A stretch of DNA of 64,000 nt from contig JAHLWS010000078.1 in NCBI GenBank assembly GCA_019057795.1, positions 1 through 64,000 on the forward strand, written 5' to 3'. Made by a program: the position numbers and the translations under genes. Each line of letters opens with the position of its first letter. The first letter of the stretch is position 1. This DNA is from Promethearchaeota archaeon (GTDB lineage Archaea; Asgardarchaeota; Lokiarchaeia; Sigyniarchaeales; SOKP01). Positions 11,077 to 16,791 of this stretch are shown piece after piece. The notes below the pieces were generated by a model, which worked only from the letters and a program-made list of their open reading frames with translations, did no database searches and was not told the DNA's origin.

Positions 11077-12660
11077 TTACCAAATACTTTTTCTATATAT
11101 GTGAAATGTTCTTCGACGCATCTTTTCTAATTCTGTGAATCCCATTGCTAATGCGTCAATAGCATCGAGTTTCTTACAATTTGGGAATGTTAAAATCTCC
11201 CAAATTAGTTCACTTCTTTTTTCTTTCTTTCGTAAACTATTCATAAACCTTATAGTACCGTTTATAATCGGTACTTCTAAGGACATAATACGTTCTTGCT
11301 TAGCTCTTGAATGATGTACTTCTATAATATAAGGTACAAACTCGTAATTACGTGCTTTGGCAATCTCTATCAAGAATTTGCCACCAGCATTCTCTTCAAT
11401 CGCAACAGTTACCTTTATATTTTTGTAAACTTCCCTAATATCTATAAAAGCAGTTTCTATTCTCTTAAGAATGTCATCGAAGTTATATTTTCCACTATCT
11501 TCGTCAAAAACTATGTATTCTCTTTTCTTTTCCTTTTCTTTGCTTTTAAAAATGGTTATTATCGAAGAAAAGGCACTTTCCTTATTGGTCGTCCATGCTG
11601 GGTCCAAAGCAATGCATACTGCTTCGTATTCTGACCATTTCTTTACCTCAGATGCCCAATGGATATTATCTTCTGTCCACACTCCGCCAGTCAGCGGCTG
11701 TGGATTACCTAAGTATTCTGAAGAGTATCTATACTCGCCAATTTCAGCACGTTTCTGAGCTAATTTCTCAAATGTCCACCGTTCAGGACACAGAAGGCTA
11801 CCATCGGCATTAATGGGAGTTCTAAAGAATATTGCGATTTTGTCTTTATAGCTTTTCTGAATGTAATCTAAGAAATCCCCTTCAAACTTACGTGTGCCGC
11901 AGATAATCGTTTTATTTGGGTTTATATTAGCGATAGTACTTTCCCATCGGTTTTCTAAGTCACGTTCTTTGCTAGGATACATTTCAAAACTCTCGTCAAT
12001 TGGATCGTCAATTATAAGGCATAATCCTTGTTTAGAACCATATATATCCGCATGCATTCCCAGAATTGCCTTATCTTTTAAACCATAGCAATCAAATCTA
12101 TTTCCGTCCTTTGTTTTGAAGTGATTAGCAGTATTTTTAACCACTGATTCAGTAGTTATCAAATTATTCCTAAGAAAATAGACGTAGATAAATTCAGCGA
12201 GTTGCTTCCTTCTATCTGTCCAACCTAAGAGCATAACGTCCATTTTTTTGACATCTAAGAGATATTCGATGTACATAACGAGTAGAACAGATTTACCGTG
12301 ATCTCTGGCTACGACAATTAAGGACATGTCGTTTTCTTCCAAATGCTTGAAAAGCTCATATTGCCACTTGTATAAGATTGTATAAGGAAAACAGTTTTTA
12401 ACAAATTCGGTGAAAAGACTCGGCAAAATTCGTACCTTTTCGTTTAGCGGTAAGTTTGCCCTAAGTTTGTTTAACACGTCTTTGTTTTGAATTTGATCGA
12501 GAATCCGTTTCTTAGCTTGTCTTACAGTGTTTTTTTCTTTGACTGAAATTGCCTTTGTAAGGTTGTAAAGGTCTTCGTTGTCGCAGAAAGGGTTCTCACT
12601 TAGCAGGAATCTTACCTGTGCAGTTACTGAAGTACTTGTAATTTTTGTCACGCTTTGCAA
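11077..12660 (-). CDS. terL: Terminase large subunit
   Basis: Walker A VARDHGKS, Walker B LIIDDPI, GTRK, RNase H-like nuclease IALDPA...IEEN...DAIDAL. Confidence 0.92.
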   Translation of the reverse strand: MQSVTKITSTSVTAQVRFLLSENPFCDNEDLYNLTKAISVKEKNTVRQAKKRILDQIQNKDVLNKLRANLPLNEKVRILPSLFTEFVKNCFPYTILYKWQYELFKHLEENDMSLIVVARDHGKSVLLVMYIEYLLDVKKMDVMLLGWTDRRKQLAEFIYVYFLRNNLITTESVVKNTANHFKTKDGNRFDCYGLKDKAILGMHADIYGSKQGLCLIIDDPIDESFEMYPSKERDLENRWESTIANINPNKTIICGTRKFEGDFLDYIQKSYKDKIAIFFRTPINADGSLLCPERWTFEKLAQKRAEIGEYRYSSEYLGNPQPLTGGVWTEDNIHWASEVKKWSEYEAVCIALDPAWTTNKESAFSSIITIFKSKEKEKKREYIVFDEDSGKYNFDDILKRIETAFIDIREVYKNIKVTVAIEENAGGKFLIEIAKARNYEFVPYIIEVHHSRAKQERIMSLEVPIINGTIRFMNSLRKKEKRSELIWEILTFPNCKKLDAIDALAMGFTELEKMRRRTFHIYRKSIW

Positions 12661-13019
12661 ATATTTTTAGAATACTCAATCCATTTTTTTCAATTCCATT
12701 CATATAAATCGACGGGGGATACCTATCGTTTCTATCACTCTCTAAGAATACTAAACCTAATGTGCATTAATTACTTGAAATATATAGTGTGCACACTGAA
12801 TTTACAATCATTAGATAGTTATCACAGTAATGCCGTGATTCATGTGACAAAGCAGAGTAGGGCTTTTTGAGTCTCATTCTATAAGGAGTAGACAGAAAAG
12901 CCCATAAGCTCCCCATGTACGAAGGTTTGAAAAGGTAGAAGAATATGCATCTAATGCATAACTCTATCAATAATTATTAACGTAATTTGTATTTAAATGT
13001 TTACAAAAATTACATTTGC

Positions 13020-13440
13020 ATACATTTGCATACAATAATGAAATAATGAAATGTAGTGTAATAACTTCTTCCCACTCTTCTAGTATATTATGAATGAAAC
13101 TCAGCTAGAATAGTAAAAAGATTACTACACTTTAAATAATGAAATAATGAATGCTCATACTACCCATACAATTCATTTACCTAAATTCCTTAATATTCTT
13201 TACCCAATGCATGTAGAAAAAAAATATACTAGTTTAATTCTAGTAGATAGAGAGTAATCAAAACGTCGGAATTTAGGTATATAATAATGAAATAATGAAA
13301 TAATGTGAAATAACAAAATAACACGTTTTCCAATACATCCTCTATACTAAGTAATTAACTAGTATATTTTTTTTCCATGTGCATTGGGTGAAAAAAAATA
13401 GGTTATTTAGTTATTTCATAATGAAATGATAAAAAATGTA
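13020..13440 (+). ncRNA. Candidate large structured viral ncRNA (may extend 5' to ~12730)
   Basis: Helices 13202-13252/13340-13389, 13178-13189/13268-13279, 13304-13322/13402-13420 and a hairpin at 13052-13131; several non-WC positions are G-U on + strand; AATAATGA repeats in linkers. Confidence 0.55.
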
Positions 13441-13509
13441 AATCCTTATATAAAGATTTTATTAAAGATTATTGAATTGAAATAAATTCAATTTTCTACA
13501 GTGATTAAT

Positions 13510-13818
13510 ATGAAAAAGAATGTAAATTTTAAACTAGATGTAGATTTACACAGTTGGTTAAAACATTATGTTATAACAAATAACACGACAATAACCGAAG
13601 TTTTAACCAAACACATCAAAGAATTGAAAAATCCAAAGACGACAATAACCGAAACTAATAATTCGGAAAAACCAAAAAAAGTATCTAAACCTAAGAAGTC
13701 TAAACCATATAACGAAGACAATCCGCCAGAAGAGCCCATGTACGAAGGAGATTCATTCGATGAGCCATTATCGGTTAAAGATTTTGTTAAAATGGGCTAT
13801 CATAAAAAGAGCGATTAA
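13510..13818 (+). CDS. Ribbon-helix-helix DNA-binding protein (viral regulator)
   Basis: KNVNFKLDVDLHSWLKHYVITNNTTITEVLTKHI strand-helix-helix pattern; TATA-like TTATATAA at ~13446. Confidence 0.7.
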   Translation: MKKNVNFKLDVDLHSWLKHYVITNNTTITEVLTKHIKELKNPKTTITETNNSEKPKKVSKPKKSKPYNEDNPPEEPMYEGDSFDEPLSVKDFVKMGYHKKSD

Positions 13819-13820
13819 AA

Positions 13821-14201
13821 ATGGCACACACTGAATCATCTCGACTTAATCGTGTATATAGTATGTTTATTCCCCCCGATGTCTTTCTTGGTAAACGAGT
13901 AATGACAGAATTTGATACTCTTCATAGCAAACTCCGCCACTGCCATACTTGCGGACGTCCTATGATATGGTCTGAATTTCTCGCAGGAGCTCGAATAGGA
14001 GTGGGTTTTTATACGTTTGGCATGAAAATGCTCAAAGAAATATGGGAAAACGACATCTTCGTGTTAAAATGCTGTCGTTGTTTTCACTCAAACACTCAAA
14101 ACTCCGACGTATTAGATGCAATAACCCACTGGCTTCCAGAATACATGCGAAATCCTGCAGTAACGATGGATGATTTAAATAATGAACTGGAATCAGATTA
14201 A
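13821..14201 (+). CDS. Zn-finger protein (CxxC...W...CCxC)
   Basis: CHTC and CCRC motifs with intervening W residues. Confidence 0.6.
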   Translation: MAHTESSRLNRVYSMFIPPDVFLGKRVMTEFDTLHSKLRHCHTCGRPMIWSEFLAGARIGVGFYTFGMKMLKEIWENDIFVLKCCRCFHSNTQNSDVLDAITHWLPEYMRNPAVTMDDLNNELESD

Positions 14202-16355: not shown

Positions 16356-16462
16356 TTTTTTTAATCACTCTCATTTTTTTATTTTTTATTTTTTTTTCTA
16401 TTATTTTTTTGTTGGTCGATGTCCTATTTTGAATTGAGTATTTAAATGTAGGCACTCGGAGT

Positions 16463-16488: not shown

Positions 16489-16791
16489 TTTGGTATTTTG
16501 GCTTATACTCTCATGTTCTTTAAATAAGCTCATTTTTATTTTCATTATTACTTTCTCACTACAATTAATATAGGGGATAGAGTATTTAAACGTCAGCATG
16601 TAACCCAATAATTTTAAACAATTTTTCAGAAAAAATTTAAGCTGCCTAGAATTTATTAAATTAGGAATAAAATAAAAATTATTGTAAATTCGGTTTGTAC
16701 AGCAGTAATTTTTTATAATAAAAAGTAATCGTGACAATAGCTTTCAATCAATAAATTTCAATAACATATTAATATATATAAAGACAAGGTT

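Follow-up and report, generated by a model that had tools for sequence, protein, structure and literature searches.

The intergenic region at positions 13020-13440 of the window (the whole 64,000-nucleotide stretch of DNA analysed here) raises the question of whether its extensive secondary structure belongs to an RNA molecule or to the DNA itself. The earlier note had read it as one large pseudoknotted non-coding RNA of the plus strand, serving as a protein sponge, scaffold or packaging RNA, with a DNA origin composed of repeats and hairpins as the alternative. The first reading was not supported, as no strand bias was found and the modules of the region are reordered and individually inverted in relatives. 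The alternative fitted better, with the repeats taken as putative operators of an RHH protein. Our best explanation, held with moderate confidence, is that this is a DNA cis-acting control and replication-origin region, in which a pRN1-like stem-loop origin would be joined to F55-type operators.

The region lies in a tailed provirus of ~16.5 kb carried by a Lokiarchaeia (Promethearchaeota) host (contig C78 of the host genome G000). The first 142 bases of the window are a host repeat, and the provirus is therefore probably complete at this length. An 11-bp direct repeat, TAAATTTCAAT, at 242-252 and 16751-16761, near both provirus ends, is a possible candidate for the att core (E = 0.1). On one side of the region, terL stands at the head of the structural operon. 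Its product matched phrog_38 (E = 8e-42, residues 67-519) as a full terminase large subunit; terL has relatives in Lokiarchaeota virus Skoll (30%) and in a provirus whose Promethearchaeota genome belongs to the same family. The other side carries the RHH gene, a Cys-rich ORF, a methyltransferase and the integrase, followed by host purM-like genes. No replication gene was recognised among the tested proviral ORFs, and no TerS gene was seen in the provirus. The Cys-rich, Zn-binding protein of ORF 13821-14201 is conserved in the virus clade and has distant relatives in 14 host-family genomes, encoded either next to glutamine synthetase or as fusions with small GTPase-like domains; these host relatives gave no clue to an initiator. 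On the host contigs C52 and C73, ARAGORN called a putative tRNA-Pyl and a putative tRNA with a 'Stop' anticodon.

The region is an array of three imperfect AT-rich palindromes (C, A and B) separated by 8-bp-period repeats. Its features are as follows (L-numbers denote regions of related viruses):

11077-12660, minus strand: terminase large subunit (TerL) gene, the divergent neighbour of the array, with an N-terminal three-helix extension
12990-12997, minus strand: TATA-like box TTTAAATA after GTAAACA, facing terL; predicted promoter, conserved in L016, L022 and L241
13034-13050, plus strand: repeat cluster 1, a putative RHH operator with two AATAATGA units at an 8-bp period
13052-13132, no strand assigned: module C, imperfect palindrome of ~80 bp, AT-rich at its centre; homologs have the same orientation in L133 and are inverted in L022 and, probably, L241
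13135-13151, plus strand: repeat cluster 2; putative RHH operator, overlapping a TATA-like TTTAAATA at 13131-13138
13156-13164, no strand assigned: CATACTACC, likely a remnant arm of module D (by eye); module D is complete in L242
13178-13279, no strand assigned: module A, 12-bp terminal inverted repeat and 78-bp core (13190-13267); homologs in L133, L017 and L242
13199-13392, no strand assigned: long inverted repeat formed by 13199-13266 and 13323-13392, one part in each core (the helix of the earlier note)
13283-13303, plus strand: repeat cluster 3, with 2-3 units that continue into the AAATAAC repeats in the arm of module B
13304-13420, no strand assigned: module B, 19-bp terminal inverted repeat and 79-bp core (13323-13401); homologs in L133, L017, L022 and L242
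13413-13425, no strand assigned: palindromic repeat junction TTTCATAATGAAA, found in L133 too
13445-13452, plus strand: CTTATATA preceded by GTAAATC, a TATA-like box ~60 nt upstream of the RHH start; predicted promoter, with equivalents in L133, L017, L022 and L241
13510-13818, plus strand: gene of the RHH protein with an acidic tail (PHROG Arc-like; family profile SvtR/ParG)

The terminal repeat of module B is built from 8-bp-period AAATAAC units, and its core repeats that of module A in inverted orientation. The sense-strand TTTAWATA motif peaks at -70..-51 in the host, and the right-hand TATA-like box is at the host-typical distance from the start codon; a promoter matrix made from host tRNA upstream regions was uninformative. 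Upstream of the integrase, two TTTAAATA boxes (16439-16446 and 16583-16590) have one ATAATGAA between them (16541-16548, minus strand); a single ATAATGAA there is within chance.

The pairings named in the earlier note were all found. Positions 13178-13189 pair with 13268-13279 at 12 of 12 positions, 13260-13266 with 13323-13329 at 7 of 7, and 13304-13322 with 13402-13420 at 18 of 19 (17 Watson–Crick pairs and one G-U). The hairpin given as 13052-13131 is real and spans 13052-13132, and so are the linker repeats, with ATAATGAA at 13035, 13043, 13136, 13144, 13284, 13292 and 13418. The long helix exists too, but it is longer than had been claimed, with 60 bp on the plus and 65 bp on the minus strand. 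As an inverted repeat, it comprises 63 matches, 6 transitions, 6 transversions and 7 gaps, and folds alone at -60.2 (plus) and -61.5 (minus) kcal/mol. An assembly artefact was considered unlikely, the two cores being just 69-77% identical. The GC content of the array is 24%, and its GC-skew turn is confounded by gene direction.

Folded as RNA, the region departs from chance on both strands (z -7.2 on plus, -7.3 on minus), and DNA folding is likewise equal on the two; the best-strand MFE was -106.9 as compared with -67.3 +/- 6.5 for host windows of equal GC. The bias of G-U pairs toward the plus strand, from which selection on a plus-strand molecule had been argued, was not found: G-U pairs are split 6:6 between the strands (plus versus minus, 4 vs 2 in the long helix, 1 vs 0 in the stem of module B and 1 vs 4 in hairpin C), and over 14 modules of six viruses they number 32 and 37 (p = 0.63). 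Hairpin C itself folds better on the minus strand (z -4.5, as against -2.4 on plus).

The proposal that all these pairings form simultaneously as a double pseudoknot is also hard to reconcile with geometry. With a and b denoting the terminal stems of modules A and B and h the long helix, the arc order a<h<a'<b<h'<b' is that of kissing hairpins, i.e., two hairpins with complementary 78- and 79-nt loops. The linkers of 12 nt (~78 A) are too short to span the 60-bp helix (~168 A, 5.5 turns), and therefore the three stems, which cannot easily coexist around this helix, are alternatives. On the plus strand, the two local hairpins amount to -49.3 kcal/mol and the duplex fold to -64.9 kcal/mol, the duplex on the minus strand reaching -64.6 kcal/mol.

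These two states would suit a structured plus-strand RNA of ~270 nt (13160-13430), transcribed from the TATA-like box at 13131, repressed by the RHH protein and flipping between two hairpins and the 60-bp duplex. We regard this as very unlikely. Its strong folding and the overlap of the plus-strand TTTAAATA at 13131-13138 by the repeats speak for it, but the minus strand folds equally well, the three stems hardly coexist, a U8 run (13367-13374) lies inside the helix of an array as poor in GC as this one, and the TATA-like box at 13131 is not at the same place in homologs. The linker motifs track the RHH protein, and divergent TATA-like boxes flank the array. The search of Rfam returned no known family, giving one chance hit outside the element for the window (E = 6.7) and, for the homologs, miRNA-like hits far below the gathering score. 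A colinear one-strand fold with G-U bias, as in ROOL, GOLLD or OLE-like RNAs, was not seen here, and our literature search on structured RNAs of Asgard viruses found nothing. Were this reading true, the region would encode a structured regulatory RNA of an Asgard virus that has no Rfam family.

For a comparison with related viruses, relatives were gathered through homologs of terL, the RHH gene and the Cys-rich protein, which gave five independent regions (L133, L017 = L024, L022 = L023, L241 and L242), all mutually related and several of them truncated. All five contain imperfect AT-rich palindromes of 70-140 bp, which fall into four types (modules A-D). The modules change order, number and orientation between relatives: the order is C-A-B in the window, B-A-C in L133, A-B in L017, B-C (inverted) in L022, C alone in L241 and A-D-B in L242. 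The inversion of module C in L022 is seen from scores of 68 and 78 in reverse as compared with 51 and 43 in direct orientation; module C of L241 has diverged but shares its better-folding strand with L022. Modules A, B and C each occur in 4-5 viruses, their closing stems are kept across viruses with a few two-sided changes, and every virus of the clade keeps at least one module. The array as a whole lies behind a small RHH gene in L017 and L022, where it may be transcribed, as an RNA reading would have it, and between back-to-back TATA-like boxes in the window and L241.

The long helix is not conserved as such. The cores of modules A and B belong to one family, which occurs in either orientation and in a long self-complementary or a short one-sided form. 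The window has two short cores facing one another, and the long helix therefore arises as two inverted copies of one module core. The cross-helix is absent in L133 (z +0.7 on plus), although the partner of module B there may lie past the contig end, and in L017 it is weaker than the local folds on the plus strand. A complementary core pair is present in L242 too (z -8), arranged independently, which would favour an RNA; however, its T-tract strand comes first, so that polarity is reversed with each core flipped. Thus, the cross-helix was found in two viruses with opposite polarity, the view of covariation being limited to 4-5 sequences. The cores also show 10 virus-concordant columns within a virus, as against 2 and 3, and within-virus copying and selection on the long helix explain this concordance equally well. 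The 60-bp helix is a consequence of the two inverted cores, one of which was probably copied from the other within the virus. An early explanation, an exchange of 3' arms between two perfect hairpins, was abandoned because L133 and L242 show the short core as its own unit. We infer that such behaviour is unexpected for a colinear one-stranded RNA and expected for DNA modules bounded by inverted repeats.

A search of IMG/VR found no close relatives, a DNA search of 60 related genomes returned only short AT-rich chance matches, and the terL search of 161 genomes of the class yielded a single distant provirus, which lacks the array. Of the 105 hits of a spaced-pattern scan, none of those retrieved matched the module profiles. 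In the host genome, blastn and nhmmer detected no module copies outside the provirus (best E >1), so the modules are not a host repeat of the MITE or REP type. In a comparison aimed at ORB boxes shared with the host oriC, the motif of which was not established, the module profiles had no match around the three orc1/cdc6 genes of the host or in the rest of its genome. In a distant relative (L135:1190-1620), the region upstream of terL carries GAGTCTAA repeats and an AT-rich palindrome, a similar plan in unrelated sequence.

The modules taken singly, above all module C, could instead be small oriented RNAs of ~80 nt (antisense RNA, primer or antitoxin), each on its own strand and inverting between viruses. 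The consensus fold of module C is -9.06 on one strand as compared with -0.39 on the other, with several changes that retain G-U pairs, and the same strand of the module wins in four of four viruses (in the window and L133 the minus strand, in L022 and L241 the plus strand). However, covariation in module C did not exceed that of shuffled controls (43-70 of 500; 4-5 sequences), no promoter is conserved at a fixed distance, modules A and B lack a clear preferred strand, and an oriented single-stranded DNA hairpin gives an identical signal. Small RNAs of this kind are therefore, in our estimate, improbable to much the same degree as the single large RNA. The oriented folding of module C and the kept stems point to single-stranded hairpins on module-specific strands.

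The position of the array upstream of terL and the missing TerS gene might suggest a packaging signal (pac or cos DNA, or a packaging RNA) for a TerL acting without a separate TerS. This function we consider highly doubtful. In L017 and L022 the array lies farther from terL, and the terL relatives L018, L021 and L134 have no such array in the available sequence (that of L021 and L134 being short). Meanwhile, TerL possesses its own conserved N-terminal three-helix domain, possibly DNA-recognising (residues 9-54; 12450-12660, minus strand; pLDDT ~88). Fold matches of this domain are weak (Z <=5.3, many HTH-like), and as modelled it may stand in for TerS. The packaging motor of phi29-type systems, which use a packaging RNA, lacks the TerL nuclease; here the neighbour of the array is a full terminase large subunit. 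It should be noted that the block at 12700-12960, right before terL, is much better conserved than the array and colinear in five viruses, and would make a stronger candidate for a structured late leader or for pac/cos. It contains GTGACA repeats with a 10-bp period, a conserved hairpin (GGGY-TTTTTGA-GCCC) and a short long-range pairing that shows two-sided changes. A 30-bp insertion at ~12878-12907, specific to the window, repeats the conserved hairpin arm in inverted form, and the RHH gene contains a 14-bp copy of 12912-12925, CCCATGTACGAAGG being copied at 13727-13748 without a counterpart in L133. This insertion and the copy in the RHH gene are signs of a rearrangement hot spot.

The repeats between the palindromes were best explained through the RHH protein, the cognate gene of which adjoins them as expected of an operator array. 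Its family profile matched SvtR (2KEL, E = 2.9e-7) and ParG (1P94, E = 4.8e-5). Seven of the nine proviral copies of ATAATGAA are clustered within 390 bp, with 2.6 expected in the whole provirus, and all four copies of AATAATGAAATAATG in the 4.95-Mb genome are in this region. Among the six viruses, a small and related sample, the linker motif changes together with the RHH recognition strand. The motif TAATGAAA is present in six copies in the window and five in L133, with the RHH beta-strand NVNFK/NINFK, and TTACATAA occurs in L022 and L241, both of which have the beta-strand LINIR. In L017 the motif is TGTTAGTACA (eight copies, three inside the RHH gene) and in L242 it is TTCCAATGT. The match between RHH protein and repeat is drawn from two pairs and could be explained by shared descent; terL is 86% identical between L022 and L241, and either is 82-83% identical to that of the window. 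Judging from these sequences, RHH dimers very probably bind the repeats as double-stranded DNA operators. The arms of the module B stem are inverted 8-bp-period repeats, and the stem may thus be an inverted pair of RHH binding sites. The three repeats within the RHH gene of L017 (L017:3350-3420) are the intergenic repeat, encoding KIVST repeats. The acidic tail of the RHH protein contains a PIP-like stretch seen by eye, with a score of 0.02 for PCNA and the tail, and is not kept in L022 and L242.

The evidence for operators is the strongest part of the case, and it would be accounted for by a transcriptional switch alone, in which RHH operators lie between divergent promoters, the palindromes are either by-products of recurrent template switching and duplication or minor insulators, and the origin is elsewhere or replication is origin-independent. 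The locus rearranges readily, as the inverted duplication at ~12878-12907 and the 14-bp copy in the RHH gene indicate, and 6 of the 12 substitutions in the long helix are transversions. Against this speak the closing stems of modules A, B and C, kept across viruses with some two-sided changes, and the retention of at least one module by each virus of the clade. We judge such a switch on its own to be unlikely, though a good deal more plausible than any of the RNA or packaging readings.

For the preferred reading, a DNA origin joined to operators, the following sequence of events is proposed. RHH protein bound to the repeats would, very probably, control the flanking divergent promoters and so act as a switch between lysogeny and induction. 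After excision, negative supercoiling between the divergent promoters would open the AT-rich cores, and the modules would extrude as ~100-nt stem-loops to serve as loading or priming sites, in the manner of the pRN1 stem-loop. A core present in both orientations would provide one site per strand, as do ssiA and ssiB of IncQ. Because the virus has no replication gene, the replication protein would have to be supplied in trans, and its source might conceivably be the host or a co-resident element that encodes a D5-type primase-helicase.

Such an element is present in the host: a second integrated element at ~50000-66000 of contig C22 (G000:C22, L273) encodes an RHH protein, an integrase and a D5-type primase-helicase of 977 aa. 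It is the only DUF5906 hit in the host genome, and its primase-helicase family was found in just 7 of the 161 class genomes searched. One of the three hairpins in the genome with an A-tract and a T-tract is upstream of this helicase gene (C22:52965), without significant similarity to the module profiles. Terminators were rejected as an explanation of such hairpins, which are this few and show no excess at convergent gene ends.

In the relative L018, a D5/SF3 helicase gene occupies the slot of the array, with a stem-loop ~46 bp downstream (z -3.5, one strand); its similarity to the modules gave p ~0.006 as an 80-nt piece and p = 0.16 over the whole intergenic region. A significant palindrome was found in 1 of 11 helicase-downstream regions, that of L283 (G072:C88), where it measures 130 bp, begins ~45 bp (to 170 bp) after the stop of the DUF5906 helicase gene, and has a TATATA core and tandem 8-bp repeats at both ends, which is the plan of module B. 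This palindrome is a candidate stem-loop origin of another Lokiarchaeia element. The modules showed no significant homology to palindromes located after other D5 helicase genes. In L278 (G072:C96), several direct and inverted GTTGCTGGGTGTTT copies, iteron-like, follow the DUF5906 gene.

These data provide a candidate 420-bp origin and its likely regulator for small tailed Asgard viruses, which have no replication genes; an origin that works would also be a point of departure for genetic tools in Lokiarchaeia. For the comparison of binding, there are six natural variants in which RHH protein and repeat are matched, and the borrowing of a D5-type primase-helicase in trans by such viruses is a testable idea. 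If only the operator switch is real, the value is modest. The region also illustrates how a palindrome core present in two inverted copies can look like a pseudoknotted RNA.

Several known systems resemble parts of the array. The verdandiviruses (10.1101/2021.07.29.453957) are likewise small tailed Asgard viruses without replication genes that depend on outside machinery, and the part of that account available to us contained no description of an origin or non-coding RNA. The homologous regions of baculoviruses (PMC4535591) are repeated imperfect palindromes that combine an origin and a transcriptional element; unlike the array, they are dispersed, near-identical repeats of a large eukaryotic virus, and no homology is implied. 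The IncQ (RSF1010) oriV with ssiA and ssiB (PMC8567376) likewise unites repeats with two inverted hairpin-forming copies on opposite strands, but IncQ encodes RepA, RepB' and RepC and has 40-nt ssi sites, none of which is present here.

On the operator side, F55 of SSV1, SvtR and AvtR (PMC5569661) and the ParG sites (PMC3130281) place an RHH protein next to clustered short tandem repeats that lie close to its own promoter and to neighbouring ones. F55 binds tandem 8-mers ATAGATAG at early promoters and keeps lysogeny (PMC5569661), these sites being like the 8-bp-period repeats of the array. The systems differ in virus realm and motif, and here the putative operator clusters alternate with long palindromes.

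On the origin side, the pRN1 origin is a ~100-nt stem-loop with a 21-nt stem and a 58-nt loop; it lies 54 bp downstream of the primase-helicase gene, can be relocated, and keeps its shape but not its sequence (PMC4234260). The array differs in having up to three shuffled modules in place of a single stem-loop downstream of its own primase-helicase, and it is a candidate origin only. Since this provirus has no primase-SF3 helicase gene of its own upstream of the stem-loops, the element is not a member of the pRN1 family. Nevertheless, modules A, B and C are each a stem-loop of ~100 nt with a short stem and a large loop (12 + 78, 19 + 79 and 15 + 46, as compared with 21 + 58 in pRN1) that is kept in relatives, and they share with the Sulfolobus plasmids a shape kept while the sequence drifts, a flexible position and an RHH repressor on the element.
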